Part shown: piece after piece, positions 3,637 through 52,012 of the stretch | How the letters are laid out: every line of letters starts with the position of its first letter | Position numbering within the stretch: the stretch's first letter is position 1 | NCBI GenBank assembly: GCA_041912555.1 | Contig: JAYRMU010000032.1 | Location: 45,614-109,613, forward strand | Reading direction: 5' to 3' | DNA from: Thermoanaerobaculia bacterium | GTDB lineage: Bacteria; Acidobacteriota; Thermoanaerobaculia; UBA5066; Gp7-AA6 | Length of the DNA: 64,000 bases | Made by a program: the position numbers and the translations under genes | Notes under the pieces: generated by a model | The model's database searches: none | What the model was told of the DNA's origin: nothing | Seen by the model: the letters and a program-made list of their open reading frames with translations, nothing else

Positions 3637-3833
3637 GGGACTTGTCTCCTTTATAGAGGCCTCGAAACCCGCCGGTCGGGTGCCTTCTCCGACATCTGGA
3701 ACAACGGGAATGGGGGTGCCGCGGTTACATCCGCCACCCGGAGCGCGGGCGGAACTTTCGGGCGCCGGGGGCGTCCCTAGCTTCAGGCGGCCGGGTTCAC
3801 GACGGAGTCCCGGCCCCGGAGACCGGGGGGGCC

Positions 3834-7612: not shown

Positions 7613-7639
7613 TCCCGCTTTCTCGCGAGGAGGTGACGC

Positions 7640-32841: not shown

Positions 32842-33660
32842 CAGCGAGGCGAGAAATCGCTCCCAGACCCGCCAGTACGGCTCGCCTCCGACGATCCACG
32901 TGTCGTTGTGGTGCGCTCCCGGGATGACGAAGAGCTCCCGCGCGCCCCGCGCTTCCTCGGCGAGGCGGCGGCCCTGGGCCGGCGGCGCGATCTCGTCGTT
33001 CTCGGCGACGAGGAAGAGCTTGGGCGCGGCCACCTCCGCGATCTTCCTCTCGTTGTCGAAGCGGCTCCGGACGAGGAAGGCGGGGACGAAGGGATAGTGC
33101 ACGCGGGCGAGCGCCGGCACCGAGAGGAACGGCGTCTCGAGCACCACCGCGGCGCACGCCCAGCGTCGGGCGACCTCGATCGCCACGGCGCTGCCGAGGG
33201 ACTCGCCGAAGAGGATGATCCGGTCGGGGCGGACGCCGGCGTCCACGACCGCCCGGTAGACCGCGCGGCCGTCGCGATAAAGGCCTTCCTCGGAAGGGGA
33301 GCCCCCGGAGGCGCCGTATCCGCGATAGTCGACCAGCACGACGTCGAGGCCGAGTCGGTTGCGGAAGATCCGGGCGCGCTCGAGCCGGTCCGCGGCGTTG
33401 CCCGCGTTGCCGTGAAAGAAGATCAGGACGCGGCGGCCCGAGCCCCGGATCCACCAGCCGCGCAGGAGGATCCCGTCCTCCGTCCGCAGCGAAAGGTCGT
33501 CGGCCTCGAGGCCGAAGTCCCGGGGCGCGGCGGCCACGCGCCGTGTCGGAAAATAGAGCAGCCGGCGCTGGAGCAGGACGAACGCGGCGGCGGCGAGGAC
33601 GATCGCCAGGAGGACGACGCCCGCCGCGAGAGAACCGGCGGTCACGAGGGAGCGCGGCAT
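32824..33660 (-). CDS. Alpha/beta hydrolase (BEM46/ABHD13-like)
   Basis: FFHGNAGN, DYRGYG.S.G.PSE.GL, GESLG, GA.HND; N-terminal TM. Confidence 0.9.
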   Translation of the reverse strand: MPRSLVTAGSLAAGVVLLAIVLAAAAFVLLQRRLLYFPTRRVAAAPRDFGLEADDLSLRTEDGILLRGWWIRGSGRRVLIFFHGNAGNAADRLERARIFRNRLGLDVVLVDYRGYGASGGSPSEEGLYRDGRAVYRAVVDAGVRPDRIILFGESLGSAVAIEVARRWACAAVVLETPFLSVPALARVHYPFVPAFLVRSRFDNERKIAEVAAPKLFLVAENDEIAPPAQGRRLAEEARGARELFVIPGAHHNDTWIVGGEPYWRVWERFLASLPGSGL

Positions 33661-33715
33661 CGCTGCCGTATACTTTCTCACCCGATCGCCCCTTTTGTTC
33701 CGTGAAAGGAGATCC

Positions 33716-36700: not shown

Positions 36701-36928
36701 GAGCCCAAGCTCGATCACGACTGGGTCTACCTCGCGGCCATCGTCGCCAGCGCCGACGCGAAGCCGCTGGCGTCGTCGGTCGAGTACTACAACCTGCTCA
36801 AGGGGCGGCTCGACACGGTGCGCGCCGAGTACAAGGCGATCCTCGACGGGGACGTGAAGGCCTTCAACGCCGCGGTCCTGAAGGCGGGCGTGCCTCCGGT
36901 CGCGCCCGCGCCGAAGGCCGCGTCCTGA
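33716..36928 (+). CDS. Secreted VPS10/BNR-repeat glycosyl hydrolase-like protein
   Basis: AAGGAG RBS; GPFRGGR; multiple S/TxDGGxxW repeats; paralogue of 7640-10765. Confidence 0.9.
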   Translation: MTSVRRPGALLALLAVLSAPLFAADPPAAAPRDAKEAKDKGLSERFEGLEFRLIGPFRGGRVTAVTGVRHDPFTFYFGATGGGVWKTTDGGSNWQVVSDKDFKTGSIGAIAVAESDPNVVYVGTGEEPIRGNVSHGDGVYKSTDAGRTWKNVGLRDTRQIARIRVHPKNPDLVYVAAQGHVWGPNAERGIFRSEDGGKTWKKILYVDEKTGASDLAMDPANPRILYAGFWQVVRHPWELVSGGPGSSLWKSTDGGDSWKKLTAGLPEGIWGKVGVAVSPARPGRVFAFVEAAHGGLYRSDDSGEKFTHVNDEHKIRERAWYYSWVYPDPKNAEVLYLPNVQMHKSIDGGKTFASMHVPHGDNHDLWIDPDDPNRFIVGNDGGATITDNGGASWSTQDNQPTAQFYRVTTDNQFPYWVYGSQQDNSNVCIPSGVPGDGIGSSDWHAAGGGESGWMAVDPKDPNVVYAGEYGGIITRYDHRTKQARIVMAWPQLADGHATKDLKYRFQWNAPIMISPNDPKALYHASQILLRSRDEGETWEEISPDLTRNDKSKQGKSGGPITIDVTGVELYSVIFALGESAADPGVLWAGSDDGLVHVTRDNGKTWQNVTPKGMPEWIQINAIDASPRDKGTAYVAATMYKWDDFRPYLYKTSDYGKTWTKITNGIPDGAFTRVVREDPVRQGLLYAGTETGLYVSFDDGANWQPFQRNLPVTPITDLAVKNDDLVVATQGRAFWILDDLTALRKWSEAIGTSPAYLFPPRATVRMDVDARDEEEGPRGAGRNVPPGVVVDYWLKDAPGESDRVTLEFLEGDTVLRSFSNQKPPKSDDLKADAERAEMEKDRDKPLAPRAGVNRFVWDMRIMRPTLVPKAVFNEGTRNPPKVGPGAYAVRLTVAGKTFTQPIEIRPHPAVSASAADLKAQFELLKAIRDRLSETHDTVLQIRDVRTQVEEIGARAERLGKGDALAKQAAAIAARLTAVEDQLTNPKIVADEDDLNYEPKLDHDWVYLAAIVASADAKPLASSVEYYNLLKGRLDTVRAEYKAILDGDVKAFNAAVLKAGVPPVAPAPKAAS

Positions 36929-37674: not shown

Positions 37675-38814
37675 ATGACCTCGATGGTCCGGCTTTCCGG
37701 GGAAGAGGCGGCAACGCGGGGGCCCTCGGTGGATCGCCGCGACTTTCTGCGCGTCTGTACCCTCGCGCTCGCGGCGGTCGGAATGCCGTTTGCGGCGGCG
37801 GCCGAGGTGGCGCAGGCGATCGCGGCGAAGAAGCTGAAGCCCTCCGTCATCTGGCTTCACTTCCAGGAGTGCACGGGCTGCACCGAATCGCTCCTGCGCA
37901 CCTCGCATCCCGCCGTCTCGGAGCTGATCCTCGACCTCGTCTCGCTCGACTACTGCGAGACGCTCTTCGCCGCCGCGGGCCACCAGGCGGAAGCCGCGCT
38001 GAAGAAGGCGATGACGGAGAACGCCGGGAAGTACGTCCTCGTGATCGAGGGGGCGATTCCGACGAAGGACGACGGAATCTACTGCCAGATCGGCGGACGC
38101 ACCGCGCTCGAGATCGCCCACGAGGTGGCCGACAAGGCCGGCGCCATCATCGCCATCGGATCCTGCGCGTCGTGGGGAGGCGTGCCCTCGGCCGACCCGA
38201 ACCCCACCGGGGCGACGGGGGCGCCGACGATCCTCAAGGGCAAGACGGTCGTCACGATCCCCGGGTGCCCGGCCAATCCGTACAACCTCCTCGGCACGGT
38301 CCTCCAGTACGCGACTTTCGGGACCCTGCCCGCCCTCGACGACAAGAACCGGCCCCTGTTCGCCTACGGCCGGACGATCCACGAGCAGTGCCCTCGCCGG
38401 GCCCACTTCGACGCCGGGCGCTTCGTCCAGAAGTTCGGCGACGAGAACGCCCGCCTCGGCTACTGCCTCTACAAGATGGGCTGCAAGGGCCCGGCGACCC
38501 ACGCCAACTGCTCCGTCCAGCACTTCGGAGAGGTGACCGACGCATGGCCGATCGGGATCGGCCATCCCTGCTTCGGCTGCACCGAGCAGACCCTCGGGTT
38601 CCGCGTGTCCCAGTTCACGACGGTGGACATCGACCGCGCCCTGCCTCCCGCCACCTATCCGCCGGTTCACGCGCCGCAGGGAAGGATCAGCCCGGTAGCG
38701 ACCGGTCTCGCGGGGCTCGTCGGAGGCGCCCTGCTCGGCGCGGGCTTCGCGGCCGCGCGCAAGCTCGGCGCGGCGCCCCCCGAGGAGCCCGGAAAGCCGG
38801 AAAAGGAGGCGTGA
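37675..38814 (+). CDS. hybO: [NiFe]-hydrogenase small subunit, Tat-exported
   Basis: DRRDFL Tat motif; ECTGCTES, GSCA, PGCP, H..C.R, CLYKMGCKGP, HPCFGC; C-terminal TM anchor. Confidence 0.95.
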   Translation: MTSMVRLSGEEAATRGPSVDRRDFLRVCTLALAAVGMPFAAAAEVAQAIAAKKLKPSVIWLHFQECTGCTESLLRTSHPAVSELILDLVSLDYCETLFAAAGHQAEAALKKAMTENAGKYVLVIEGAIPTKDDGIYCQIGGRTALEIAHEVADKAGAIIAIGSCASWGGVPSADPNPTGATGAPTILKGKTVVTIPGCPANPYNLLGTVLQYATFGTLPALDDKNRPLFAYGRTIHEQCPRRAHFDAGRFVQKFGDENARLGYCLYKMGCKGPATHANCSVQHFGEVTDAWPIGIGHPCFGCTEQTLGFRVSQFTTVDIDRALPPATYPPVHAPQGRISPVATGLAGLVGGALLGAGFAAARKLGAAPPEEPGKPEKEA

Positions 38815-38815
38815 G

Positions 38816-39760
38816 ATGCCGGTCGACAGGCGCTTCCTGCTCAAGGGCCTCTGCGCCGCCGGCGCCGCGGCCGCGGCGGGGGGGACCGTGGAGGCGCGCG
38901 CCGCGCGCGTGGCGCCGCCCGACGCCCTCGGCCTGCTCTACGACGCGACGCGCTGCATCGGGTGCAAGTCCTGCGTGGTCGCGTGCCGCGCCGCCAACGA
39001 CCTGAAGCCCGAGCCCCAGAACTCCCCGGGAGGGATCTGGGACACGCCCATGGACCTCGACGGCGACACCAAGACGGTCATCAAGCTCTACAAGAGTGCG
39101 GACGGCTTCCAGTACTCCTTCTTCAAGGCGCAGTGCATGCAGTGCGTCGATCCGGCGTGCATCAACGCGTGCATGCTCGGGGCGCTGAAGAAGGGGGAGC
39201 ACGGAATCGTCTCCTACGACTCGAACCTCTGCATCGGCTGCCGGTATTGCCAGATGGCGTGCCCCTTCAACGTCCCCAAGTTCCAGTGGACCCACGTCGC
39301 CCCGAAGATCGTCAAGTGCGAGCTGTGCCGGCATCGCGTCAACGGCGCGACGCTCGCGAGCTTCGGCGGCTTCAGCCGCTATCCCGCCGGACACGGCCCC
39401 GCCTGCGCGGAGGTCTGCCCCCGCGGGGCGGTCATCACGGGCACGCGCGACGAGCTTCTGGCCGAGGCGAGGCGCCGGCTGGCCGAGAACCCCGACCGGT
39501 ACGTTCCGAAGATCTACGGCGAGAAGGAGGGCGGCGGGACGCAGTGCCTCTACCTGTCCCACGTCCCGTTCGAGAACCTCGGCCTGCCCCGGTTGTCGGA
39601 CCGGCCGGTCCCCGATGTCCAGCAGACGATCCAGCACGGCATCTACCAGGGCTTCGTGGCGCCGCTGGCCCTCTACGGGCTTCTGAGCGCGGTCGTCTTC
39701 CGCAATCGCAAGCAGCCCCCGCCCGGGGGCGGCGCGTCCGAGGGCGGAGGTGTGTCATGA
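38816..39760 (+). CDS. hybA: Hydrogenase-2 4Fe-4S ferredoxin-type subunit
   Basis: DRRFLL Tat motif; four Cys clusters (CIGCKSC, CMQC..PAC, CIGCRYC, CELC). Confidence 0.93.
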   Translation: MPVDRRFLLKGLCAAGAAAAAGGTVEARAARVAPPDALGLLYDATRCIGCKSCVVACRAANDLKPEPQNSPGGIWDTPMDLDGDTKTVIKLYKSADGFQYSFFKAQCMQCVDPACINACMLGALKKGEHGIVSYDSNLCIGCRYCQMACPFNVPKFQWTHVAPKIVKCELCRHRVNGATLASFGGFSRYPAGHGPACAEVCPRGAVITGTRDELLAEARRRLAENPDRYVPKIYGEKEGGGTQCLYLSHVPFENLGLPRLSDRPVPDVQQTIQHGIYQGFVAPLALYGLLSAVVFRNRKQPPPGGGASEGGGVS

Positions 39761-40941
39761 CGCAAGCGCGGGCCCTGGGCGGGCCGATCCTCACGCGTCC
39801 GGTGCGGTGGCTGCTCGTCCTGGGGGCCGTCGGCGCGGCGCTGATCGTGTGGCGCCTGGCGGCCGGAATCGGCGCGGTCACCGCGCTCACGGACGGCCAG
39901 CCCTGGGGACTCTGGATCGCCGTCGACATGGTCACCGGCACCGCCCTCGCGTGCGGCGGGTACGCCATCGCCCTGCTGGTCTACATCCTCAACAAGGGGC
40001 GCTACCATCCGATGGTCCGTCCCGCCATCCTGACGAGCGCGCTCGGATACACGCTCGGAGCGGTGTCGATCCTCCTCGACGTCGGGCGGCCGTGGCTCGG
40101 CTGGAAGGTCCCGCTGTACGCCTGGTCCTGGAACTTCCACTCGGCCCTGCTGGAGGTCGCCCTCTGCGTCATGACCTACGTGCTTGTGCTGTGGCTCGAG
40201 CTGTCTCCCGCCTTCCTCGAGAAGTTCCGGGAGGGTCCGGCCGGACCGCTCCAGAGGTTCTCGCAGAAGGCCTTGCCGATCGTGGACAAGGCGCTCGTCT
40301 GGATCATCGCGCTCGGGATCCTGCTTCCGACGATGCACCAGTCCTCTCTCGGGACCCTGATGGTGCTGACCGGCCACAAGCTCCAGCCCCTCTGGCAGAC
40401 GCCGTTCCTGCCCCTGCTCTTCCTGACCTCCTGCGTGGCGATGGGATACGCCACGGTCGTCTTCGAGACCTCGCTCGCGACGCTCTTCTTCCGCCGGCCC
40501 GCCGAGACACCGATGCTGGCGTCGCTCTCGGGGGCCATGCTTCCCGTGCTCGGGCTCTTCCTGCTCGTGCGTTTCGGCGACCTCGTGGCGCGCGGCCGGC
40601 TCGGCCTCGCCTTCGTCCCGGATCGGTTCGCGGCGGCCTTCTGGATCGAGACCGGCCTCTTCGCGCTGCCGCTCGTGATGCTGGCGGCGCCGGGCCGCCG
40701 CCGCGACCCGGGCAACCTGTTCCGTGCCGCGATGCTGATGATGCTGGCCGGAGGGGTCTACCGCTTCAACACGTACATCCTGGCTTACCGGCCCGGGGAC
40801 GACGTCCACTACTTCCCGAGCGTTCCCGAGCTGTTCATCACGCTGGGCCTGGTGGCCCTCGAAATCGTCGGTTACGTCGCGATCGTCAAGCTGTTCCCGA
40901 TCTTCAGCAGCGCCAACGGCCGGGCCGCGGCGCACACCTAG
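39757..40941 (+). CDS. hybB: Hydrogenase-2 NrfD-family membrane subunit
   Basis: PWGLWI..D, ALACGGY, LLPTMHQSSLG motifs; about 10 TM. Confidence 0.92.
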   Translation: MTQARALGGPILTRPVRWLLVLGAVGAALIVWRLAAGIGAVTALTDGQPWGLWIAVDMVTGTALACGGYAIALLVYILNKGRYHPMVRPAILTSALGYTLGAVSILLDVGRPWLGWKVPLYAWSWNFHSALLEVALCVMTYVLVLWLELSPAFLEKFREGPAGPLQRFSQKALPIVDKALVWIIALGILLPTMHQSSLGTLMVLTGHKLQPLWQTPFLPLLFLTSCVAMGYATVVFETSLATLFFRRPAETPMLASLSGAMLPVLGLFLLVRFGDLVARGRLGLAFVPDRFAAAFWIETGLFALPLVMLAAPGRRRDPGNLFRAAMLMMLAGGVYRFNTYILAYRPGDDVHYFPSVPELFITLGLVALEIVGYVAIVKLFPIFSSANGRAAAHT

Positions 40942-40950
40942 AGGTCCGTC

Positions 40951-42651
40951 ATGTCGCAGCGCATCGTCGTCGACCCGGTCACGCGCATCGAGGGTCATCT
41001 CCGCATCGACTGCGAGGTCGATCAGGGCAAGGTCCAGAAGGCGTGGTCCTCGGGACAGATGTTCCGCGGGATCGAGACCATCCTGCTCGGCCGCGACCCG
41101 CGCGACGCCTGGATGTTCACGCAGAGGTTCTGCGGCGTCTGCACGACGGTCCACGCGATCGCGTCGGTGCGCACCGTCGAGAACGCCCTCGGGCTCGAGA
41201 TCCCGATGAACGCGCAGTACATCCGCAACCTCATCGTGATGGCGCACGCCATGCACGACCACATCGTCCACTTCTACCAGCTGTCGGCGCTCGACTGGGT
41301 CGACGTGGTGTCGGCGCTCAAGGCCGATCCCGCGAAGGCCGCGGCGCTCGCCCAGAGCCTGTCGCCCTGGCCCGGCAACAGCAGGGAGCAGCTGAAGGCG
41401 GTCCAGGACAAGGTCAAGACGTTCGTCGAGGCCGGCCAGCTCGGGATCTTCACCAACGGCTACTGGGGCCACCCGGCGATGAAGCTGCCGCCCGAGGTGA
41501 ACCTCCTCGCCGTCGCCCACTACCTCCAGGCGCTCGAGTACCAGAGGAAGGTCAACCAGGTCGTGACCATCCTCGGAAGCAAGACGCCGAACATCCAGAA
41601 CCTCGCCGTCGGCGGGGTGGCCAACGCGATCAACCTCGACAACGAGGCGACGCTCAACATGAACAAGCTCTTCATGGTCAAGGACGTCCTCGACCAGATG
41701 AGCGCGTTCATCGAGCAGGTGTACTTCGTGGACGTCTGCGCCATCGCCGGGATGTACCCCGAGTGGCTCGGCTACGGCGCCGGCGTCACCAACTACATGG
41801 CGGTGCCGGACCTGCCCCTCGACACGAAGGGCACGAAGTTCGACCTGCCCGGCGGGACGATCTTCGGCGGCGACCTCTCGACGGTCCGGGAGATCAAGTC
41901 CTTCGACGATCCCTACTTCAAGGACAACGTCACCGAGTCCATCGCCCACGCGTGGTACGACGGCGAGTGGACGAAGCACCCGCACGAAGAAGACACCGTG
42001 CCGAAGTACACGAAGTACGACGACGCGAAGAAGTACTCGTGGGTCAAGGCCCCGCGCTTCCAGGGCAAGGTCATGCAGGTCGGCCCGCTCGCCCAGGTGC
42101 TCGTCGGCTTCGCCCTCGGCCACGAGCCGACCAAGCGCTGGGCGGTCAAGACGCTCGACACCGCCGGCGCCGTGGCGAAGACGAAGCTTTCGCCGGCCGT
42201 CCTCCATTCGACGCTCGGCCGCCACGCCGCCCGCATGATTCGCACCTGCGTGATCTCGGAGCTCGCCCTCAAGCACTGGAACCTGCTCGCCCAGAACATC
42301 GGCAAGGGCGACACGGCGATCTTCAACGAGCCGGTGTTCCCGAAGGGCGAGCAGCGCGGCTTCGGATTCCACGAGGCGCCGCGGGGCACACTGTCACACT
42401 GGATCGTCATCCAGGACGGGAAGATCAAGAACTACCAGGCGGTCGTGCCGTCGACCTGGAACGCCGGGCCGCGCGACGACAAGAACCAGCCCGGGCCGTA
42501 CGAGGCCTCGCTCGTGGGCAACCCCGTGGCCAACGCGGAGCTGCCGCTCGAGGTCCTGCGCACGGTCCACTCGTTCGATCCCTGCCTTGCCTGCGCGGTG
42601 CATACCCTGGACCCGGAGGGCCGGGAGATCGCGCGCGTCCGGGCGCTCTAG
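40951..42651 (+). CDS. hybC: [NiFe]-hydrogenase large subunit (group 1c-like)
   Basis: DPVTRIEGH; L1 QRFCGVCTTVH; L2 SFDPCLACAVH plus a cleavable C-terminal tail. Confidence 0.96.
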   Translation: MSQRIVVDPVTRIEGHLRIDCEVDQGKVQKAWSSGQMFRGIETILLGRDPRDAWMFTQRFCGVCTTVHAIASVRTVENALGLEIPMNAQYIRNLIVMAHAMHDHIVHFYQLSALDWVDVVSALKADPAKAAALAQSLSPWPGNSREQLKAVQDKVKTFVEAGQLGIFTNGYWGHPAMKLPPEVNLLAVAHYLQALEYQRKVNQVVTILGSKTPNIQNLAVGGVANAINLDNEATLNMNKLFMVKDVLDQMSAFIEQVYFVDVCAIAGMYPEWLGYGAGVTNYMAVPDLPLDTKGTKFDLPGGTIFGGDLSTVREIKSFDDPYFKDNVTESIAHAWYDGEWTKHPHEEDTVPKYTKYDDAKKYSWVKAPRFQGKVMQVGPLAQVLVGFALGHEPTKRWAVKTLDTAGAVAKTKLSPAVLHSTLGRHAARMIRTCVISELALKHWNLLAQNIGKGDTAIFNEPVFPKGEQRGFGFHEAPRGTLSHWIVIQDGKIKNYQAVVPSTWNAGPRDDKNQPGPYEASLVGNPVANAELPLEVLRTVHSFDPCLACAVHTLDPEGREIARVRAL

Positions 42652-43215
42652 ATGGAAGACCTCGGCAGGGTCCGGGTCCTCGGGCTCGGCAACGTCCTCA
42701 TGACCGACGACGCCCTCGGACCCTGGGTCGTCGAGGAGCTGCGGGCGAACTGGGAATTCGCCGACGCCGTCTCGGTGGTCGACGTCGGGACGCCGGGCCT
42801 CGACCTCACGCCGTACCTCGCCGGCGCCGATGCCGTCATCCTGGTGGACACCGTGCAGGCCGACGCCCCTCCCGGCTCCGTGCGCGTCTATTCGGGCAGA
42901 GAGCTGCTGTCGCGCGCGCCGACGGCGCGCGTGTCGCCGCACGACCCGGGCGTGACCGAGGCCCTCTTTCTCCTCGAGTTCGGCGGCGCGGCGCCCCGCG
43001 ACGTCGTCCTCGTCGGCGTCGTCCCGCAGACCGTGGCCAAGGGCGTGCGCCTGACGCCTCCGGTCCGCGCGGCGGTGGCGCCGGCCGCGCTCGAGGTGAT
43101 CCGGCTGCTCGCGGAGAGGAACCTCCCCGCGCGCCGGCGCCCGGCCGCGGCGGCGGCCGCGCCCTGGTGGGAGACCGCCGCGGACGGCCGCGTCGCCCCG
43201 GACCTCCATGCATGA
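42652..43215 (+). CDS. hybD: Hydrogenase maturation protease
   Basis: LGLGNVLMTDDALG, DVGT.G, S.HD motifs. Confidence 0.88.
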   Translation: MEDLGRVRVLGLGNVLMTDDALGPWVVEELRANWEFADAVSVVDVGTPGLDLTPYLAGADAVILVDTVQADAPPGSVRVYSGRELLSRAPTARVSPHDPGVTEALFLLEFGGAAPRDVVLVGVVPQTVAKGVRLTPPVRAAVAPAALEVIRLLAERNLPARRRPAAAAAAPWWETAADGRVAPDLHA

Positions 43216-43585
43216 GCTCGGCCTCGCCGAGGAGATTCACCGCATCGCGCGGCGGGCGGCCGACGAGCGGTCCGGCGGCGCCCTGGAGTCGGTGACGGTC
43301 GCGGTGGGGGACCTCGCGGCGGTCGAGCCGCGGCTGCTCGAGTTCGCCTGGCAGGCGGTCGTGGAGGGCACGGCCGACGCGGCCGCGGTGCTCGAGGTGC
43401 AGTGGCACCCGGCGCGGCAGACCTGCGCCTCGTGCGGGGACGTCCCCGGGCGGGCGCCGGGGTCCTGGATGCGGCTGTGCCCGCGCTGCGGAGAGCCCCT
43501 CGCCGTCCAGGGCGGCGACGAGCTCGACGTCGTGCGCGTCGCGTTCGCCGGGGGCGATCCGGCGTCCGCGGAGGCGGCGGGATGA
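43208..43585 (+). CDS. hypA: Hydrogenase Ni-insertion protein HypA
   Basis: MHEL start; CASC and CPRC; G.EL. Confidence 0.92.
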   Translation: MHELGLAEEIHRIARRAADERSGGALESVTVAVGDLAAVEPRLLEFAWQAVVEGTADAAAVLEVQWHPARQTCASCGDVPGRAPGSWMRLCPRCGEPLAVQGGDELDVVRVAFAGGDPASAEAAG

Positions 43586-44271
43586 CGGAAGTCGACCTCA
43601 AGCAGAAGGTCCTCGCCGCCAACGCCGCCGCGGCGCGGGGCCTGCGCTCCGGCTTCCGCGAGGCCGGGACGCTCGTGGTCAACCTCATCTCTTCGCCGGG
43701 CTCGGGGAAGACGACGCTCCTCGAGGCGACGGCGCGTGCTCTCAAGGAGCGCCTGAAGCTGGGAGGCCTCGACGGGGACATCGCCACCGACCGCGACGCG
43801 GAGCGCCTGCGCCGGGCGGGGATCCCGGCGAGGCAGATCCTGACCGGAGGCGCCTGCCATCTCGACGCGCGCCAGGTGGAGGCGGCGCTGGCCGAGGAGG
43901 GGCCGCGCCTTTCGGGCCTCGACGTCCTGTTCGTCGAAAACGTCGGGAACCTGATCTGCCCGACGTCCTACGACCTCGGCGAGGACTTCAAGGTCGTCCT
44001 CCTCTCCGTCACCGAAGGGGACGACAAGCCCTTCAAGTACCCGGCGATCTTCGCGCGGGCGGCCGTCACGCTCGTGACCAAGGCGGACCTGCTCGCCCAC
44101 GTGGACTTCGACCTCGACGCGGTCCTCGGGCAGGTCGCGGCCCTGAACCCGTCGGCCCGGGTTCTTGTCCTGTCCGCGCGCACCGGAGAGGGAATGGACG
44201 CCTGGTTCTCGCTGCTCCTGGACGAGCTCTCGCGAAAGCGCGCGGCGCGGGGCGCGGCGTGCGCGGTCTGA
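43582..44271 (+). CDS. hypB: Hydrogenase Ni-incorporation GTPase HypB (short form)
   Basis: SSPGSGKT, GDI...DA, GGACHLDA, ENVGNL.CP, EG.DKP.KYP, TK.DL; no His-rich N-terminus. Confidence 0.95.
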   Translation: MTEVDLKQKVLAANAAAARGLRSGFREAGTLVVNLISSPGSGKTTLLEATARALKERLKLGGLDGDIATDRDAERLRRAGIPARQILTGGACHLDARQVEAALAEEGPRLSGLDVLFVENVGNLICPTSYDLGEDFKVVLLSVTEGDDKPFKYPAIFARAAVTLVTKADLLAHVDFDLDAVLGQVAALNPSARVLVLSARTGEGMDAWFSLLLDELSRKRAARGAACAV

Positions 44272-44693
44272 ATCCGGGCCCGGGGGCGGGCCCGGCCGGC
44301 CTCGATCGGCGCGAGGCTCTGGGCGCGCTCGGAGCGCTCCTCGCGCTCGGTGTCGCCTCCCCGCGATGCAGCCCGGGCCCGTCCGAGGAGCCGCTCCGCC
44401 CGGGCCAGGTCGCGCTCCCGCTCAAGAGCCTTCGGCCGGGCGCCCGAACCGTCGTGGACGTGGCCGGCAACCCGGTCGAGGTGGTGAGGTCGGCGGACGG
44501 CGTCTCGGCGCGGATGCTGCGGTGCACCCACATGGGATGCATCGTCCGCTGGAAGGAACAGACGGACGAGTACGTGTGTCCCTGCCACGACGGACGCTAC
44601 GACGAGGCGGGCAACGTCGTCGCCGGCCCGCCGCCGCTTCCCCTGCGCCCGGTCCCGGCCGTCATTTCCGGGGGCCGCGTCATCCTGGGCTAG
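44259..44693 (+). CDS. Rieske [2Fe-2S] protein with Tat-like signal
   Basis: CTHMGC and CPCHDG boxes, GPPP.PL; DRREALG N-terminus. Confidence 0.88.
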   Translation: MRGLNPGPGAGPAGLDRREALGALGALLALGVASPRCSPGPSEEPLRPGQVALPLKSLRPGARTVVDVAGNPVEVVRSADGVSARMLRCTHMGCIVRWKEQTDEYVCPCHDGRYDEAGNVVAGPPPLPLRPVPAVISGGRVILG

Positions 44694-44760: not shown

Positions 44761-47043
44761 GTGAGCCAGGCTGGCCGCCGGATCGAGATTCGCGGGACCG
44801 TCCAGGGCGTCGGGTTCCGCCCTTGGATCTACCGGCTCGCGCGCGAGAACGGAATCGGCGGCCGCGTCTCGAACGATTCGCGGGGCGTCACGATCGAGGC
44901 GTTCGGCACCGACGAAGCCCTGGCCGGGTTCCTGGAGGGCATCCGCGCGTCGCCCCCTCCCGCGGCGCGCATCCGCGAGCTCGAGTGCCGCGACATTCCC
45001 TCCGAGGCGTCGCGGGAGTTCGTCATCGTGGCGAGCCGCCCGTCGCCCGGCCTCGAGGTCTCCATTCCTCCGGACCTGGCGACCTGCGGCGAGTGCCTTC
45101 GCGAGGTCCTCGATCCCGCGGACCGCCGGCACCGCTACCCGTTCACCAACTGCACCAACTGCGGACCGCGCTTCACGATCGCCGCGCGCGTGCCCTACGA
45201 CCGCGCGGCGACGACCATGGCGGGCTTCCGGATGTGCGCGGACTGCCGCCGCGAGTACGACGATCCGCTCGACCGCCGGTTTCACGCGCAGCCCAACGCG
45301 TGCCCGGCGTGCGGCCCGGTCCTGTCCGCGGTCGCGCCGTCCGGGGAGCGCCTCGACGGATCGGATCCGATCCGCGCCGCCGCCCGGGCGCTCGCGGCCG
45401 GGCTCATCGTGGCGGTCAAGGGCCTCGGCGGCTTCCACCTCGCGTGCGACGCGACCTCTGCGGAGAGCGTCGAGCGCCTGCGCCGGCGCAAGAACCGCGA
45501 AGAGAAGCCCCTCGCCGTCATGGCGGCGAGCCTGGCCGCGGCCGAGGCGCTGGCCGAGCTCGGGCCGGTCGAGCGCGGGCTTCTCGCGTCGCCGGAGCGG
45601 CCGATCGTGCTCGCCCGCCGGCGTCCCGGAACGGCCCTCGCCGCGGGGCTCTCTCCCGGCAACCCGCTGATCGGCCTGCTGCTTCCGTACACGCCGCTGC
45701 ACCACCTGCTGCTCTCGGACGCCGGGAGGCCGCTGGTCATGACTTCGGGCAACCTGTCGGACGAGCCCATCGCGACCACGAACGCCGAGGCGCTCGAGAA
45801 GCTCGGCGGCGTCGCGGATCTCTTCCTCGTCCACGACCGGGACATCGCGTCGCGTTGCGACGACTCGGTCGTGCGGGAGATCGCGGGAGCCCCCTGCGTC
45901 CTGCGGCGCTCGCGGGGCTTCGTGCCGAGGCCCCTCGAGGTCAGGCCCGCGTTCGACGCGCCCGTCCTCGCGTGCGGGGGCCACCTCAAGAACACCTTCT
46001 GCGTCGGCATCGGCCACGCCGCGTACCTGGGGCCGCACATCGGCGACCTCGAGACGCTCGACAGCGTTGCGGCGTTCGAGGCCGCCGTCGAGCGGCTCGA
46101 GCGGTTCCTCGAGGTGCGCCCCGCGCTCGTCGCCCACGATCTTCACCCGATGTATGCCTCGACGGCTTACGCGCTCGGACGCCCGGGCCGCCGGGTCGCC
46201 GTGCAGCACCACCACGCGCACGTGGCGAGCGCGATGGCCGAGCACGGCCTGGAGGGCCCGGTCATCGGGGTCGCGTACGACGGGACGGGATACGGAACGG
46301 ACGGGACGGCCTGGGGAGGGGAGATCCTCCTCGCCCGGTTCTCCGGCTTCGAGCGGCTCGCGACGTTCCGGCCGATCGCGCTTCCGGGCGGCGACCTCGC
46401 GATCCGGCAGGTCTGGCGGATCGCGCTCGCGGCCCTCGAGGACGCCTTCGAAGGCGCGCCTCCGCTCGCCGGCCTGGACCTCTTCGCGCGGGTGGACCCC
46501 GGCGAGGTCGCGTTCGTGCGGACCATGCTCCGCGAGCGCGTCCCCGCTCCGCGCGCGCGCGGCGTCGGCCGCTGGTTCGACGCCTTCGGCGCGCTCGGAA
46601 TGGGGCGGCCCGCGTCGAGCTTCGAGGGGCAGGTGGCCTTCGAGTGGAACCTCGCGGCGGACACCGCCGAGCGGGGAAGCTACGACTGGGCGGTGGACCG
46701 CTCGGGCGCGCAGCCCGAGATCGACCTGCGCCCGGCGCTGCGCGCCGCGGTCGCCGACCTGCTCGACGGGCGAGGGGCCCCGGCGGTGTCGGGCCGGTTC
46801 CACAACACGCTCGCCTCTGCGACCGCCTTCGCCGTCGAGGAGGCCCGCGAACGCGCCGGCGACATGCCGATCGTCCTGACCGGCGGCTGCTTCCAGAACG
46901 CGCTGCTGGCCGAGCGCGTGCTCGAGAGGATCGGCCCGCGCGCGTCCGTCTTCGTCCATCGACGCGTGCCGCCGGGAGACGGGGGGCTCGCGCTCGGCCA
47001 GGCGATGGTCGCGGCGGCCGTCGCAAGGGAAGGAGGCCTCTGA
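44761..47043 (+). CDS. hypF: Carbamoyltransferase HypF
   Basis: GTVQGVGFRP acylphosphatase domain; two Zn fingers; VKGLGGFHL; QHHHAH; PPGDGG. Confidence 0.96.
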   Translation: MSQAGRRIEIRGTVQGVGFRPWIYRLARENGIGGRVSNDSRGVTIEAFGTDEALAGFLEGIRASPPPAARIRELECRDIPSEASREFVIVASRPSPGLEVSIPPDLATCGECLREVLDPADRRHRYPFTNCTNCGPRFTIAARVPYDRAATTMAGFRMCADCRREYDDPLDRRFHAQPNACPACGPVLSAVAPSGERLDGSDPIRAAARALAAGLIVAVKGLGGFHLACDATSAESVERLRRRKNREEKPLAVMAASLAAAEALAELGPVERGLLASPERPIVLARRRPGTALAAGLSPGNPLIGLLLPYTPLHHLLLSDAGRPLVMTSGNLSDEPIATTNAEALEKLGGVADLFLVHDRDIASRCDDSVVREIAGAPCVLRRSRGFVPRPLEVRPAFDAPVLACGGHLKNTFCVGIGHAAYLGPHIGDLETLDSVAAFEAAVERLERFLEVRPALVAHDLHPMYASTAYALGRPGRRVAVQHHHAHVASAMAEHGLEGPVIGVAYDGTGYGTDGTAWGGEILLARFSGFERLATFRPIALPGGDLAIRQVWRIALAALEDAFEGAPPLAGLDLFARVDPGEVAFVRTMLRERVPAPRARGVGRWFDAFGALGMGRPASSFEGQVAFEWNLAADTAERGSYDWAVDRSGAQPEIDLRPALRAAVADLLDGRGAPAVSGRFHNTLASATAFAVEEARERAGDMPIVLTGGCFQNALLAERVLERIGPRASVFVHRRVPPGDGGLALGQAMVAAAVAREGGL

Positions 47044-47324
47044 TGTGCCTGGGAGTTCCGGGGAGAGTCGTGGCGGTTCGGGGCAGCGTCGCCGAGGTGG
47101 ACTTCTGGGGCGTCCGGCGCGAAGTCTGCCTCGACATCGTGGACGAGCCCGTCGTCCCCGGCGACTACATCCTGAACCACGTGGGCTTCGCGATCCGCCG
47201 CATCCCCTCCGAGGACATCGCCCAGACCCTGGCCCTCTACGAGACGCTCCTCGCCGAGGCGGCGAAGGACGACCTGATGGTCGCCGACGTGCGCGGCGAG
47301 ATCGAAGGGACGGGCCGCCCATGA
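47043..47324 (+). CDS. hypC: HypC/HybG chaperone
   Basis: MCLGVPG start; GDY.L.HVGFAI. Confidence 0.95.
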   Translation: MCLGVPGRVVAVRGSVAEVDFWGVRREVCLDIVDEPVVPGDYILNHVGFAIRRIPSEDIAQTLALYETLLAEAAKDDLMVADVRGEIEGTGRP

Positions 47325-48466
47325 TCGAGAACCCCCGGATCGAAGAAGCGGTCCGCCAGCTGAAGTTCCGCGACCCCGCGACGGCCCGGCGCCTCGTCGG
47401 TACGCTCGCGCGGGTCACGAAGGAGATCGGGCGGTCGCCCGTCTCCGTCATGCACGTCTGCGGCAGCCACGAGCAGGCGATCGCGAAGTTCGGCCTGCGG
47501 GCGACCTTCCCGGAGGACCTCAACGTGATCATGGGCCCGGGCTGCCCGGTGTGCATCACCGACATGCCGGAGGTGGACGAAGGCGTCGCCCTGGCGCGCC
47601 AGGGGCACGTGGTCGCCTCGTACGGCGACATGCTGCGGGTGCGCGGGACGTCCCTGTCCCTGAACGACGTCCAGGCCGAGGGCGCGTCCGTCGAGGTCGT
47701 CTACAGCGCGACCCAGGCGGTCGAGCTCGCCCGCTCGACCGATCGCGAGGTCGTCTTCTTCGCGACGGGCTTCGAGACGACCGCGGTCGCGACGGCGGCG
47801 GTCGTTCGCTCCAACCCGCCCCGGAATTTCTCCATCCTCTCCGCCCACAAGTACATCCCGCCGGCCATGGAGATCGTGGCCGAGATGCCGGAGACCCGCG
47901 TCGAGGGCTTCCTGGCCGCGGGCCACGCCGCGACCATCACCGGCTGGGGCCTCTTCGAGCTGTTCGTCGCCCGTCACCGGATCCCGGTGGTCGTGGCCGG
48001 ATTCGAGCCCCTCGACATCCTGGCCGGGCTGGTTCGCCTCGTGGAGCTCGTGCGGGACGGCCAGCCGTCCGTCGTGAACATGTTTCCGCGCTGCGTGACG
48101 CGGGAGGGCAACCGGCGCGCGCAGGAGGAGCTCTGGAGCGTCTTCCGGCCCGCGGGGGGGCGCTGGCGGGGCATCGCGCACGTGCCCAACGGGAACCTCC
48201 GGCTGCGCGAGGAATGGGCGCACCTCGACGCGCGGCGGCGCTTCCGGATCGACCTCGCCGCCCTCTGGGACGACGCCCCGGCGGCGGTCGTGGCCGACTG
48301 CATCTGCGGCGACATCATGTCGGGCCTCGCCTCGCCATCCGACTGCAAACTCTTCGGGAAGGACTGCGTTCCCGACTCGCCCGTCGGCGCGTGCATGGTC
48401 TCCTCCGAAGGGGCCTGCCGGATCTGGCACCAGTACGGCGGCCACCCGAACCTGAGGGCGTCATGA
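47321..48466 (+). CDS. hypD: Hydrogenase maturation protein HypD
   Basis: HVCGSHE, GPGCPVC, GFETT, P.GACMVS.EGAC. Confidence 0.96.
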   Translation: MIENPRIEEAVRQLKFRDPATARRLVGTLARVTKEIGRSPVSVMHVCGSHEQAIAKFGLRATFPEDLNVIMGPGCPVCITDMPEVDEGVALARQGHVVASYGDMLRVRGTSLSLNDVQAEGASVEVVYSATQAVELARSTDREVVFFATGFETTAVATAAVVRSNPPRNFSILSAHKYIPPAMEIVAEMPETRVEGFLAAGHAATITGWGLFELFVARHRIPVVVAGFEPLDILAGLVRLVELVRDGQPSVVNMFPRCVTREGNRRAQEELWSVFRPAGGRWRGIAHVPNGNLRLREEWAHLDARRRFRIDLAALWDDAPAAVVADCICGDIMSGLASPSDCKLFGKDCVPDSPVGACMVSSEGACRIWHQYGGHPNLRAS

Positions 48467-49503
48467 GGCGGGAGCTGCTGGTCGCCGAAGAGCGCATCAC
48501 CCTGAAGCAGGGCGCCGGTGGGCGAGCCATGCGCGCCCTGATCGAGAACGTGTTCCTCCGCGACGCCCCGGAGCTGTCCGCGCGCGAGGTCGGGCCCCGC
48601 GCGATGGACGACGGAGCCGCCCTCTGGGTCGGCGACCGCTGGATCGTCCTGACCACCGACTCGCACGTCGTCCATCCCATCTTCTTTCCCGGAGGGGACA
48701 TCGGCCGGCTCGCCGTCTGCGGCACCGTCAACGACCTCGCGATGATGGGCGCGACCGAGGTCCTCGGCCTGACCTGCGGCGCGATCCTCGAGGAGGGGTT
48801 TCCGCGCACGGACCTCGAGAGAATCCAGGCCTCGATGGCCCGGGCCTGCCTCGAGGCGGACGCCCGGATCCTGACCGGCGACACGAAGGTGATGGGCCGC
48901 GGCGAGATCGACGGGATCGTGCTCAACACGAGCGGCGTCGGGCTGACCCGCCGGCTCGTGCGCGACTGCGGCCTCTCGGTCGGAGACCGGCTCCTGGTCA
49001 CCGGCGCGGTCGGCGACCACGGGCTCTCCATCCTCGCCGAGCGCCATCGGCTCAAGCTCGCGGGCGATCTCGCGTCCGACGTCGCGCCGATCAACGGCCT
49101 GGTCCGCGCCGCCCTCGACGCCGGAGGCGAAGGGATCGTCGCCATGAAGGACCCGACGCGCGGCGGGCTCTCCTCGGCGCTGCACGAGATGGCGGAGAAG
49201 AGCGGGGTCGGCATCCTCCTCGAGGAGGCGAGCGTCCCGGTCCGCGACGCCGTCCGCGCGGCCGCCGAGCTGCTCGGCATCGACCCGCTCCACGTGGCCA
49301 ACGAGGGCAAGGCCGTGATCGGCGTCCGGCCGGATCGGGCCGGGGCCGTGCTCGAGGCGCTCCGCGCCCATCCGCTCGGAAGAGACGCGGCCATCGTGGC
49401 GACCTGCGTCGCGGAGCGGCCGGGCAACGTCATCCTCGACACCGGACTCGGGCGGCGGCTGCTCGCCGAGCCCGAGGGCGAGCTCCTCCCGAGGATCTGC
49501 TGA
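48463..49503 (+). CDS. hypE: Carbamoyl dehydratase HypE
   Basis: TTDSHVV.P.FFPGG.IG.LA..GTVND; DPTRGG; C-terminal PRIC. Confidence 0.96.
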   Translation: MRRELLVAEERITLKQGAGGRAMRALIENVFLRDAPELSAREVGPRAMDDGAALWVGDRWIVLTTDSHVVHPIFFPGGDIGRLAVCGTVNDLAMMGATEVLGLTCGAILEEGFPRTDLERIQASMARACLEADARILTGDTKVMGRGEIDGIVLNTSGVGLTRRLVRDCGLSVGDRLLVTGAVGDHGLSILAERHRLKLAGDLASDVAPINGLVRAALDAGGEGIVAMKDPTRGGLSSALHEMAEKSGVGILLEEASVPVRDAVRAAAELLGIDPLHVANEGKAVIGVRPDRAGAVLEALRAHPLGRDAAIVATCVAERPGNVILDTGLGRRLLAEPEGELLPRIC

Positions 49504-49514
49504 GGACGGCGCCG

Positions 49515-50348
49515 ATGGAGCACATCCGCATCGAGAGGGACGGCGCCGTCGGGATCCTCACGATCGACCGGCGGGACCGCTTCAACTCGCTCGACGTCGC
49601 CACCGCGCGGGACTTCCGCCTGGCGGGACTGCAGCTCGCGCGCGATCCGGCCGTGCGCGCGGTCGTCGTGCGGGGAGAGGGCGGCGTCTTCTGCAGCGGC
49701 GCGGACCTGAAGTACATCCGGGCCGGCGGCGACCCGGCCGACCTCGGATACCTGCAGGAAGGCCGGCAGACGCCCGCGGGTTTTGGGGAGGTCTTCCGCC
49801 AGATCCTCGAGTACATCCACTCCGCCATCTCCGAGATCAAGCGGGCGCCCAAGCCCTTCGTGGCCGCCGTCGACGGCATGGCCGCGGCCGGGGGGTTCGG
49901 CATCGCCATGGCGTGCGACCTCGTTTACGCGTCGCCGCAGGCGGCCTTCGAGTGGGCCTACGGGAAGACGGGCCTGACCGGGGCCGAGAGCTCGACGTTC
50001 TTTCTCCCGAGGCTGCTCGGGCTGCGCCGGGCCATGGAGCTCGTGCTCCTGAATCCCCGGCTCTCCGCCGAAGAGGCCGTCGCGATGAACCTCATCAACG
50101 GCGTCTTCCCCCGGGAGAGCTTCGAGGCGGACGTCTTCGAGATCGCCCGCCGGCTCGCCGCGGGGCCCTCCGAGGCGCTCGCGGTCGCGAAGGGGCTCGT
50201 CCAGCAGGCCGCGGGCGTCGACCGCCTCGACTTCCACCTCGACCGCGAGGTGGAGGCGCTGGCGCGCGTGGCGAACGGCGCCGACTTCGCCGAGGGCCTC
50301 GCGAGCTTCTTCGAGCGGCGCCCCGCGCGATTCGACGGAGGGTACTGA
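49515..50348 (+). CDS. Enoyl-CoA hydratase/isomerase (crotonase) family protein, HypX-C-like motif
   Basis: FCSGADL and AAVDG.A.AGG oxyanion motifs; Y..TGLTGAESST.FLPR; 11 nt after hypE. Confidence 0.85.
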   Translation: MEHIRIERDGAVGILTIDRRDRFNSLDVATARDFRLAGLQLARDPAVRAVVVRGEGGVFCSGADLKYIRAGGDPADLGYLQEGRQTPAGFGEVFRQILEYIHSAISEIKRAPKPFVAAVDGMAAAGGFGIAMACDLVYASPQAAFEWAYGKTGLTGAESSTFFLPRLLGLRRAMELVLLNPRLSAEEAVAMNLINGVFPRESFEADVFEIARRLAAGPSEALAVAKGLVQQAAGVDRLDFHLDREVEALARVANGADFAEGLASFFERRPARFDGGY

Positions 50349-50350
50349 CG

Positions 50351-50998
50351 ATGCCGCCGCTCTTCGCCGCGCTCGCCGCAGCCGCCGTGACGGTGGGCGC
50401 GACCCACACGCTGGCGCCCGACCACTGGGTGCCGTTCGCGGCCCTGGCCCGCGCCCAGCGCTGGTCGGCCGGCCGGACGGCGGCCGTCACGGTCCTCTGC
50501 GGGTTCGGGCACGTCACGGTGTCCGCGCTCCTCGGGGTCCTCGGCCTGCTCTTCGGGCTGGGGATGGTCGAGGCGTTCGGCCGACGCATGGAGACCGCCG
50601 CGGGCTTCCTCCTCGTGGCCTTCGGGCTCGTCTACTCGGTGTGGGGCCTGCGCCGCGCCCTCGGCAAGCGCCTGCACGGGCACGTGCACGCCCACTACGA
50701 CCACGTGCACGAGCCGGCGCGCGCCACGGTGTGGGGCCTGTTCCTCCTCTTCTCGGCCGATCCGTGCGTGGCCGTCGTGCCGCTGCTCTTCGCCGCGGCG
50801 CCGCTCGGGGCCCGCAGCGCGACCGGGGTCGTGGGCCTCTACGAGATCGCGACGATCGGGACGATGGTCCTGCTCGTGCTGCCGGCCCGGGCGGGAGCGC
50901 GGGCGCTGCGCTCGGCCTGGCTCGAGCGGTGGGCGGACGCCGCCGCCGGCGCCGTCATCGCCGCGGTCGGCGTCTGCGTCATCTCCCTGGGCTGGTAG
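50351..50998 (+). CDS. Putative Ni/Co transporter (NicO/UreH-like)
   Basis: TM1 HTLAPDHW motif; His-rich loop HGHVHAHYDHVH; about 6 TM; ends the hyp cluster. Confidence 0.75.
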   Translation: MPPLFAALAAAAVTVGATHTLAPDHWVPFAALARAQRWSAGRTAAVTVLCGFGHVTVSALLGVLGLLFGLGMVEAFGRRMETAAGFLLVAFGLVYSVWGLRRALGKRLHGHVHAHYDHVHEPARATVWGLFLLFSADPCVAVVPLLFAAAPLGARSATGVVGLYEIATIGTMVLLVLPARAGARALRSAWLERWADAAAGAVIAAVGVCVISLGW

Positions 50999-51061: not shown

Positions 51062-52012
51062 ATGGCGGCGATTCCCATCGAGGCGCAAGGCCTGCGCAAG
51101 GTGTACCGGGGCCGGTTCGGCGGCCGGAGCGTGTCGGCCCTCGACGGGCTCGATCTGCGGGTCGAGCCGGGCGAGGTCTTCGGCCTGCTCGGCCCCAACG
51201 GGGCCGGAAAGACCACGACGGTCAAGATCCTCCTCGGACTGACCCGGCCCTCGTCCGGCTCGGCGAGGCTCTTCGGGCTCCCGGCCAGCGATCCGGCCAG
51301 CCGCAGGCGGGTCGGCTATCTCCCGGAAGGGCACCGGTTCCCCGGGTATCTGACCGCCCGCCAGACGCTCTCGATCTTCGGCCGCATGTCCGGGATGGAC
51401 GCCGCCGCGCTCGGCCGCCGGATTCCCTCCCTGCTCGAGCGGGTCCGGCTGTCCGACTGGGGCGACGTCCGGGTCAAGAAGTTCTCCAAGGGCATGACCC
51501 AGCGGCTGGGCCTGGCGGCCGCCCTCGTCCACGACCCCGACGTCCTGCTGCTCGACGAACCGACGGACGGCGTGGACCCGGTCGGCCGCCGCGAGATCCG
51601 CGACCTCCTGCAGGAGGAGGCCGCCCGCGGCAAGGCCATCCTGCTCAACTCGCACCTGCTGTCCGAGATCGAGCGGATGTGCGGCCGCGTGGCGGTCCTG
51701 CGCGCGGGCCGGGTGGCCGCCGAGGGCCGCATCGAGGACCTGACGGCGGGCGGCTCCCGGTACCGGCTCGTCGCGAGCGACGTGGACGAGCGGCTTCTCG
51801 CCGCCTTCCGCGAGACCGGAGCGACGATCGAGCGCGTCAACGGCCACTTCGATCTGGGCGCGCGCGACCTCGATCACCTGAACGCCCTGGTGGACCGGCT
51901 GCGCGCCGGCGGCGCGAAGCTCCAGGAGCTGTCGCCCGTGCGCTCGAGCCTCGAGGACGTGTTCGTCGGCCTCGTCCGCGACGGCGACGCCGGAAAGGAC
52001 GCGCGCCCATGA
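51062..52012 (+). CDS. ABC transporter ATP-binding protein
   Basis: GPNGAGKT, FSKGM signature, LLLDEP, SH switch. Confidence 0.93.
   Translation: MAAIPIEAQGLRKVYRGRFGGRSVSALDGLDLRVEPGEVFGLLGPNGAGKTTTVKILLGLTRPSSGSARLFGLPASDPASRRRVGYLPEGHRFPGYLTARQTLSIFGRMSGMDAAALGRRIPSLLERVRLSDWGDVRVKKFSKGMTQRLGLAAALVHDPDVLLLDEPTDGVDPVGRREIRDLLQEEAARGKAILLNSHLLSEIERMCGRVAVLRAGRVAAEGRIEDLTAGGSRYRLVASDVDERLLAAFRETGATIERVNGHFDLGARDLDHLNALVDRLRAGGAKLQELSPVRSSLEDVFVGLVRDGDAGKDARP

Follow-up and report, generated by a model that had tools for sequence, protein, structure and literature searches.

A stand-alone crotonase encoded after hypE in a Thermoanaerobaculia bacterium, a candidate formyl-CoA decarbonylase of [NiFe]-hydrogenase maturation

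The hydrogenase maturation (hyp) operon of a Thermoanaerobaculia bacterium (GenBank assembly GCA_041912555.1, contig JAYRMU010000032.1, positions 45,614 to 109,613, a stretch of 64,000 nucleotides that is called here the window and whose own numbering is used throughout) contains, directly after hypE, the gene for a crotonase of 277 residues with a single ECH_1 domain (P0001; 49515..50348, + strand), for which a function as formyl-coenzyme A (formyl-CoA) decarbonylase is proposed from its sequence. P0001 belongs to a previously undescribed crotonase family dedicated to the hyp genes, of which the window shows the minimal form, without a formyltransferase (FT) partner. That the protein is a hydrogenase-maturation accessory of some kind appears highly probable; that it decarbonylates formyl-CoA in the manner of HypX's C-terminal domain is, from the sequence comparisons described below, moderately probable. 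To our knowledge, HypX is the only enzyme known for the CO-ligand step of maturation, and no form of it other than a fusion protein is known. A 2025 review regards the source of CO in anaerobes as the most pressing question of the field. Full-text literature searches returned no description of a stand-alone or two-gene form of HypX; in the literature searched, formyl-CoA decarbonylation was found only in the HypX structure paper, in the 2025 review and in one HybG-HypD paper.

A crotonase family tied to the hyp genes

The TGA stop codon of hypE (49501-49503) and the ATG of the crotonase gene (49515) are separated by 11 nt, with a Shine-Dalgarno-like GAGGA (49502..49506, + strand, read from the sequence) that overlaps the hypE stop and lies 8 nt 5' of the ATG. 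The crotonase stop codon (50346-50348) is in turn followed after 2 nt by the ATG of the next gene (50351), which encodes a membrane protein of 215 residues and is preceded by a GGAGGG within the 3' end of the crotonase gene. Both distances had been given exactly in an earlier note on this DNA, which was made from the sequence alone and which placed the gene within the maturation operon. The gene is intact. With respect to expression, the crotonase sequence was present only in DNA runs of activated-sludge metagenomes, and no informative RNA run was found.

Membership in the maturation operon, and the co-occurrence with hyp genes that the note had suggested checking, are both confirmed by the distribution of the family. 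When a single genome of each species was scanned, 80 orthologue loci with 66-84% identity to P0001 were obtained, in which the Hyp proteins of the window were placed by tblastn; 76 of them have at least 1.3 kb of upstream sequence and form the basis of the linkage counts. In all 76 hypE is found within 2.1 kb upstream of the crotonase gene. The carriers belong to at least five phyla, namely Acidobacteriota (Thermoanaerobaculia and Vicinamibacteria), Gemmatimonadota, Methylomirabilota/Rokubacteria, Binatota and 'delta'/Myxococcota-type bacteria, plus one alphaproteobacterial metagenome-assembled genome (MAG). The conservation at this level of identity across phyla, with an invariant active-site loop, is the mark, at the level of sequence, of strong purifying selection. 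A gene for an FT is interposed between hypE and the crotonase gene in half of the loci (38/76); among the other 38, the crotonase gene directly follows hypE in 35, as in the window. The remaining three, all in Gemmatimonadales MAGs (L036, approximately 3290-3990, L053 and L066), carry in the usual FT slot an open reading frame (ORF) of roughly 165 residues that reads MAVVYTQGEP...HEEEYxTT...TLIRY. Across the relatives the neighbouring hydrogenase genes vary, being Hyb-like, cytochrome-b-linked or divergently transcribed, so that it is the hyp genes, rather than one hydrogenase type, with which the crotonase is associated. The earlier proposal that it serves a Hyb-type hydrogenase fits the operon next to it, which is Hyb-type, but not as a specific association. 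The hypX genes of C. necator, Bradyrhizobium, Rhizobium and Sulfurimonas lie at this same position after hypE. On a contig labelled as a Nitrosotalea sp. MAG (L024), an ammonia-oxidising archaeon, a bacterial-type hydrogenase/hypFCDE-crotonase cluster with 72% identity to that of the window was also met; the archaeal assignment is most likely a binning error.

P0001 is a crotonase superfamily member, as judged from the ECH_1 profile (150.9 bits with a gathering cutoff of 27; ECH_1/ECH_2 are its sole domains) and from the beta-beta-alpha spiral fold predicted for it: the AlphaFold2 model (predicted local distance difference test score, 81.8) matches the M. avium crotonase 3p5m with a template modelling score of 0.85 and a root mean square deviation of 1.7 Å, and the polypeptide ends with the ordinary crotonase C-terminal helices. 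Its nearest named neighbours in both sequence and fold are PaaG-like crotonases. However, the scores are far below the cutoffs of the corresponding NCBIfam models, with 169.5 bits versus 300 for the alternative oxepin-CoA hydrolase (NF046063) and 142.4 bits versus 345 for PaaG (TIGR02280). A search of 1.8 billion cluster representatives showed that the family forms a tight island, with members at least about 55% identical, surrounded by a few proteins at 42-43% identity and then by ordinary crotonases at about 40% or less.

Active-site motif and formyltransferase partners

The residues proposed to be catalytic in HypX are Tyr439 and Glu449 of the C. necator protein, corresponding to Tyr416 and Glu426 of A. 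aeolicus HypX; they adjoin the CoA thiol, and their mutants show a HypX-minus phenotype (PMC6802093). The C-domain motif and the role of Tyr and Glu, which the earlier note had given, are in agreement with this paper and with the C. necator HypX sequence. BLASTP aligns P0001 with C. necator HypX with 28% identity over 212 residues (E 6e-11, one gap), and in this alignment, as in that produced by MAFFT, Tyr149 (codon 49959-49961) and Glu158 (codon 49986-49988) face the putative catalytic Tyr and Glu of HypX. Both residues are part of AYGKTGLTGAESSTFFLPRLLG and lie in the active-site loop FEWAYGKTGLTGAESSTFFLPRLLG encoded by positions 49947..50021 (+ strand), at a place where C. necator HypX reads HYKNMGNLYGSEYWTYLLPQRVG. 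The P0001 motif is Y-x3-G-L-x-G-A-E-x2-T-x2-L-P, and in the comparison with HypX it takes the form Y-x3-G-L-x-G-[AS]-E-x2-T-x2-L-P, with E146, W147, Y149, G156, A157, E158, S159, S160 and T161 invariant in 34 family members. The match with HypX extends over 21 residues. One gap within the motif is also present with respect to A. aeolicus HypX. However, the HypX proteins of Kitasatospora, Embleya, Acaryochloris and Sulfurimonas (HY-x3-G-L-x-G-S-E-x2-T-x2-L-P) align with no gap and share the Tyr-Glu spacing of the window's protein, so that the gap with respect to the C. necator enzyme is not a real difference.

The diagnostic value of the motif was evaluated with the 104 nearest ordinary crotonase representatives. 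None of them carries Glu or Asp in the column of Glu158, and the preceding column, which holds Ala157 in P0001, is occupied in 101 of the 104 by Asp, the catalytic residue of PaaG-type enzymes. At the level of sequence, the family-specific change from P-D-G to G-A-E is the HypX state (G-S-E). The motif and the Tyr and Glu codon positions of the earlier note were right, and the Glu pattern is absent from all 104 ordinary neighbours. Glu175, which corresponds to the second Glu of the hydratases, is also retained in the family.

The FT genes found between hypE and the crotonase gene encode proteins of 230-270 residues, and their stop codon often overlaps the crotonase start (ATGA). They keep the N-x-H...D catalytic triad, with H125, D128 and D169 invariant. 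NCBIfam and Protein Data Bank (PDB) profile searches identified them as PurN-type, whereas HypX's N-terminal domain is of the Fmt/FDH type, so that the partner FT is not a detached HypX N-domain. When an FT profile was used to scan metagenome contigs, reaching down to about 42% identity, the crotonase gene was directly downstream in 70/70 FT loci with enough downstream sequence and hypE was directly upstream in 56/56 loci with enough upstream sequence. Thus, the FT was never seen apart from the crotonase, but half of the species have the crotonase with no FT, which identifies the crotonase as the core and the FT as an optional add-on. At least six switches in FT presence can be counted on the crotonase tree, and even the closest relatives differ, L009 (83% identity) having the FT and L010 and L011 sharing the FT-less order of the window. 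No residues separate FT-linked from FT-less crotonases (the largest column frequency difference is 0.44), nor was a conserved gene that might substitute for the FT found downstream in FT-less loci, where hypA, the 215-residue membrane protein or assorted other genes are present.

An FT of the Fmt type is the partner of P0133, a Glu-bearing crotonase that is more distant (42% identity) and that likewise comes after hypE. The three genes are on a short metagenome contig (L181, 1255-2968), in the order hypE, Fmt-type FT (Formyl_trans_N plus Formyl_trans_C) and P0133, which makes it a second two-gene HypX-like module. This FT is 28% identical to the HypX N-domain (E 8e-13) and resembles it also in an H-P...D-x-R-G...A-L-x-W-A-I motif. 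The crotonase therefore looks like a constant core for which formyl-tetrahydrofolate (formyl-THF) transferases of two kinds are interchangeable partners. A hypX that follows hypE on plasmid p_1 of Mesorhizobium huakuii (L089, 4055-5632), and that is annotated in two pieces, a 106-residue FT and a 353-residue ECH protein with a gap between them, was considered as a natural split and rejected; as read from the annotation, it is probably a disrupted gene.

Within the 64-kb window, no tblastn match to the PurN-type P0122, to the Fmt-type FT of L181 or to the HypX N-domain was better than E 0.1, and Pfam scans of about 27 other genes of the window revealed no formyltransferase, CoA-transferase or thiamine pyrophosphate enzyme able to make formyl-CoA, in accordance with the earlier note, which had seen no formyltransferase domain. 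For the further suggestion that formyl-CoA is supplied in trans, no supplier was found in the window, and in the metagenome loci scanned the cognate FT was never separate from the crotonase. For the latter reason, an FT is also unlikely to be hidden elsewhere in the genome from which the window comes.

Relation to HypX and proposed function

A maximum-likelihood tree (LG+C20, 76 rows) was built with 12 HypX C-domains, 28 members of the family, 6 divergent members, 26 neighbours and the E. coli enzymes PaaF, PaaG, MenB and CaiD. The HypX C-domains are monophyletic (100/100) on a very long branch, and the ordinary crotonases, with the four E. coli proteins among them, group in a clan to which neither HypX nor the hyp-linked family belongs (99/94). 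A profile hidden Markov model (HMM) of the HypX C-domain gives median scores of 67.9 bits for the family versus 48.5 bits for the neighbours, and 28-36 bits for the four E. coli proteins. The tree comparison with HypX and ordinary crotonases that the note had recommended thus places the family outside the ordinary clan, but it does not establish orthology with the HypX C-domain, and the designation as formyl-CoA decarbonylase-like domain stands on the Tyr/Glu pair, on synteny and on an FT order equal to that of HypX. Sequence is compatible with common descent with the HypX C-domain, which is possible, and it equally allows convergence on the same catalytic pair.

A 557-residue HypX-like FT-crotonase fusion, 36% identical to HypX, is encoded on a Nocardia sp. 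plasmid (L091, 2995-4668). It keeps the Tyr...G-S-E pattern with a shorter loop. Its gene has no hyp context and adjoins those of a porin, an MpaB-family oxygenase and an FAD monooxygenase, and the fusion may handle CO or formyl groups in some other role.

In the proposed mechanism, formyl-CoA would bind in the oxyanion hole of the crotonase, where Tyr149 and Glu158 would act as the base, directly or through a water molecule, for decarbonylation of the thioester to CoA-SH and CO, the latter serving as the CO ligand in the Fe(CN)2CO unit that is assembled on HypCD. The crotonase gene would share a transcript with hypFCDE, probably with translational coupling. Where the PurN-type, formyl-THF-dependent FT is encoded immediately upstream, as in about half of the species, it would make formyl-CoA, and the pair would be a two-gene counterpart of HypX. 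The window has no FT, and formyl-CoA would therefore have to come from another source, which calls for a housekeeping route. For E. coli, the 2025 review lists as candidate sources of formyl-CoA the formyl-CoA transferase/oxalyl-CoA decarboxylase couple and phosphotransacetylase acting on formyl phosphate.

Several observations weigh against this assignment. The join between HypX and the family is supported by values of 47/0, and forcing HypX into the ordinary crotonases worsens the log-likelihood by 5.9 units, an alternative that the approximately unbiased (AU) test does not reject (p-AU, 0.40); because of these values, the motif could be convergent. The HMM score ranges overlap, ordinary crotonases reaching up to 78 bits, the 50 best Foldseek matches of the P0001 model do not include HypX, and P0001 is about 40% identical to PaaG-like crotonases versus 28% to HypX. 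Tyr149, tried as a diagnostic residue, was rejected because 72 of the 104 ordinary neighbours also have Tyr in this column (Phe in another 31). Finally, in HypX a permanently bound CoA passes from one domain to the other, a transfer that is not possible in a crotonase that stands alone, and, with the FT absent from the window and the cognate FT never unlinked, no formyl-CoA supplier for this crotonase was found.

These points leave room for a genuine maturation accessory with a different CoA-thioester chemistry, namely a hydrolase, isomerase or decarboxylase, an enzyme that makes CO from another precursor, or a CoA-bearing adaptor of HypCD/HypE. Such a protein would share the universal hyp linkage, the substrate being read from the motif only, and would not require the formyl donor gene that half of the loci lack; it would also suit a clade that arose from, or beside, PaaG-like isomerases and hydrolases by displacement of the acidic residue by one position (from Asp L-7 to Glu L-6), with Glu175 retained. 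On the other hand, the partner, when present, is always a formyl-THF-type transferase, of either subtype, which points specifically to a formyl group, and the predicted Tyr/Glu geometry matches that of HypX along 21 residues, so that a different chemistry is seen as possible but rather unlikely. The chance proximity to hypE of an ordinary catabolic crotonase of the PaaG/EchA type agrees with the best NCBIfam and PDB matches, which are enoyl-CoA hydratases/isomerases and proteins of PaaG type, and with the label of epoxyphenylacetyl-CoA isomerase that the Joint Genome Institute (JGI) gives to the relatives. It is contradicted by the scores far under the family cutoffs, by the replacement of the PaaG catalytic Asp with Ala and by the hyp linkage across phyla with no paa or beta-oxidation genes nearby; synteny effectively refutes it, and its probability is minimal. 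Also quite improbable is a reading of the FT-less gene as what is left of the two-gene module, in decay or without catalytic activity, and kept only for structure or regulation. The repeated changes in FT presence on the tree, down to relatives as close as L009, would fit such a decay, but FT-less and FT-linked crotonases cannot be told apart by any alignment column, the catalytic loop is invariant in both, and the intact gene stands close to its neighbours, behind a Shine-Dalgarno-like sequence.

The formyl-CoA decarbonylase assignment and the optional nature of the FT can be combined, tentatively and with considerable doubt, in a scheme in which the Glu-bearing crotonase would be the ancestral core, sufficient by itself, of a CO-ligand synthase made of modules, and would, when alone, convert free cellular formyl-CoA made without a dedicated FT into the CO ligand of the hydrogenase. 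FTs of PurN and Fmt type would have been added at least twice, and the canonical HypX would be the fused end-point of one such pairing. Whatever its origin, the family is widespread and unannotated in phyla that are abundant in soil and sludge, and it appears to split the HypX function into modules, of which half of the species, including the present one, would keep only the CO-releasing half. If this is true, enzymatic synthesis of the CO ligand extends well past the classical Knallgas bacteria, free formyl-CoA is a physiological CO precursor and provides a candidate route to CO in organisms without HypX, and the label of phenylacetate-pathway isomerase that these genes receive automatically is corrected.

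The hydrogenase cluster and likeness to known systems

All genes of the cluster are on the + strand, in the order small subunit, HybA-like protein, NrfD-type HybB-like protein, large subunit, HybD, HypA, HypB, Rieske protein, HypF, HypC, HypD and HypE, followed by the crotonase. The structural genes of the [NiFe]-hydrogenase (37675..43215) were identified with Pfam as those of the small subunit with a twin-arginine translocation (Tat) signal (37675-38814; Oxidored_q6 and NiFe_hyd_SSU_C), a HybA-like 4Fe-4S protein (38816-39760; Fer4_11), an NrfD-type membrane subunit (39757-40941; NrfD), the large subunit (40951-42651; NiFeSe_Hases, 741 bits) and the HybD/HycI protease (42652-43215; HycI). Since these five genes are in the hybOABCD order of E. 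coli, the Hyb-type label is fair. The maturation genes that follow are hypA (43208-43585; Pfam HypA), hypB (43582-44271; cobW/HypB), hypF (44761-47043; a 760-residue ORF with tblastn matches in all relatives), hypC (47043-47324; HupF_HypC), hypD (47321-48466; HypD, 412 bits) and hypE (48463-49503; AIRS/AIRS_C), and from hypF to hypE stops and starts overlap or abut. Between hypB and hypF a gene for a Rieske [2Fe-2S] protein is present (44259..44693; Pfam Rieske, E 1e-11; NCBIfam PetC/Rieske-like matches below cutoff). The protein has 144 residues and a Tat-like N-terminus, and its gene is at the same position in the close relatives L002, L010 and L011, while in other relatives a Rieske/cytochrome b/multihaem set is just downstream of the hyp genes.

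The 215-residue polytopic membrane protein encoded after the crotonase (50351..50998) contains H-T-L-A-P-D-H and G-H motifs, the second of which reads G-F-G-H, and a His-rich loop, HGHVHAHYDHVH, and it is kept at the end of hyp operons in Thermoanaerobaculia. It was called a Ni transporter in the earlier note. The NiCoT-like signatures are indeed present in a membrane protein, but nickel transport itself goes beyond them: no Pfam or NCBIfam profile matches, and the similarity with C. necator HoxN is weak (E 0.08), with an alignment exactly over the NiCoT H-x4-D-H and G-H signatures. From its sequence it may be a metal permease, a candidate small NiCoT-like member of a miniature nickel permease family. 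In L026, L033, L073 and L079 the same slot directly downstream of the crotonase is occupied by a membrane protein of 226 residues that matches Pfam NicO (39 bits), with a Q-H-A-T-D-P-D-H motif and a His-rich loop. Farther downstream in the window are genes for an ABC-transporter ATPase (51062..52012, + strand; Pfam ABC_tran), which, by tblastn, keeps its place behind the membrane protein in L010 and L011, the closest relatives, and in no others, and for a putative ABC-2-type permease (to about 52863). Two proteins of more than 1000 residues with BNR/Sortilin-Vps10 repeats are also encoded in the window (7637-10765 and 33557-36928, + strand), the second ending just upstream of the hydrogenase operon.

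With classical enoyl-CoA hydratases (rat ECH and E. coli PaaF) P0001 has in common the ECH_1 fold and the second catalytic Glu, Glu164 of the rat enzyme, which is Glu175 in P0001. The first one, Glu144, presumably corresponds to Tyr149, as judged from a manual alignment with the rat loop; because of this replacement hydratase chemistry is unlikely. Furthermore, PaaF, CaiD and MenB of E. coli, unlike the P0001 family, belong to the clan of ordinary enzymes (99/94). The closest proteins, at about 30-40% identity, are the PaaG-type crotonases (1,2-epoxyphenylacetyl-CoA isomerase and 'alternative oxepin-CoA hydrolase'; PDB 3HRX/6SL9/4FZW_C and 2EJ5), which likewise carry an aromatic residue where hydratases have Glu144, as well as a ...T-x-[FY]-L-P-R-L-V-G helix. 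P0001 differs from them in having Ala157 at the place of the catalytic Asp136 of the P-D-G-G loop, Gly156 for Pro and Glu one position later, and its family is found in a hyp context, never with paa genes.

HypX/HoxX (C. necator pHG1, R. leguminosarum and Aquifex aeolicus, PDB 6J0P) is the N10-formyl-THF-dependent CO-ligand synthase of aerobic H2 oxidisers. P0001 differs from it in being unfused, with 277 residues and one domain, whereas C. necator HypX consists of Formyl_trans_N, Formyl_trans_C and ECH_1, and in lacking the C-terminal extension of roughly 90 residues (approximately 507-597 of the C. necator protein), the BLASTP alignment stopping at HypX residue 506. The partner FT, where present, is PurN-type, and the window has none, so that the intramolecular CoA swing of HypX cannot apply to it. 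Like hypX, the P0001 gene lies directly after hypE, and like HypX the protein has both the fold of a crotonase and the Tyr...G-[AS]-E...T..LP motif; in many of its relatives an FT is encoded immediately 5' of the crotonase, in the same order as the domains of HypX from the N- to the C-terminus.

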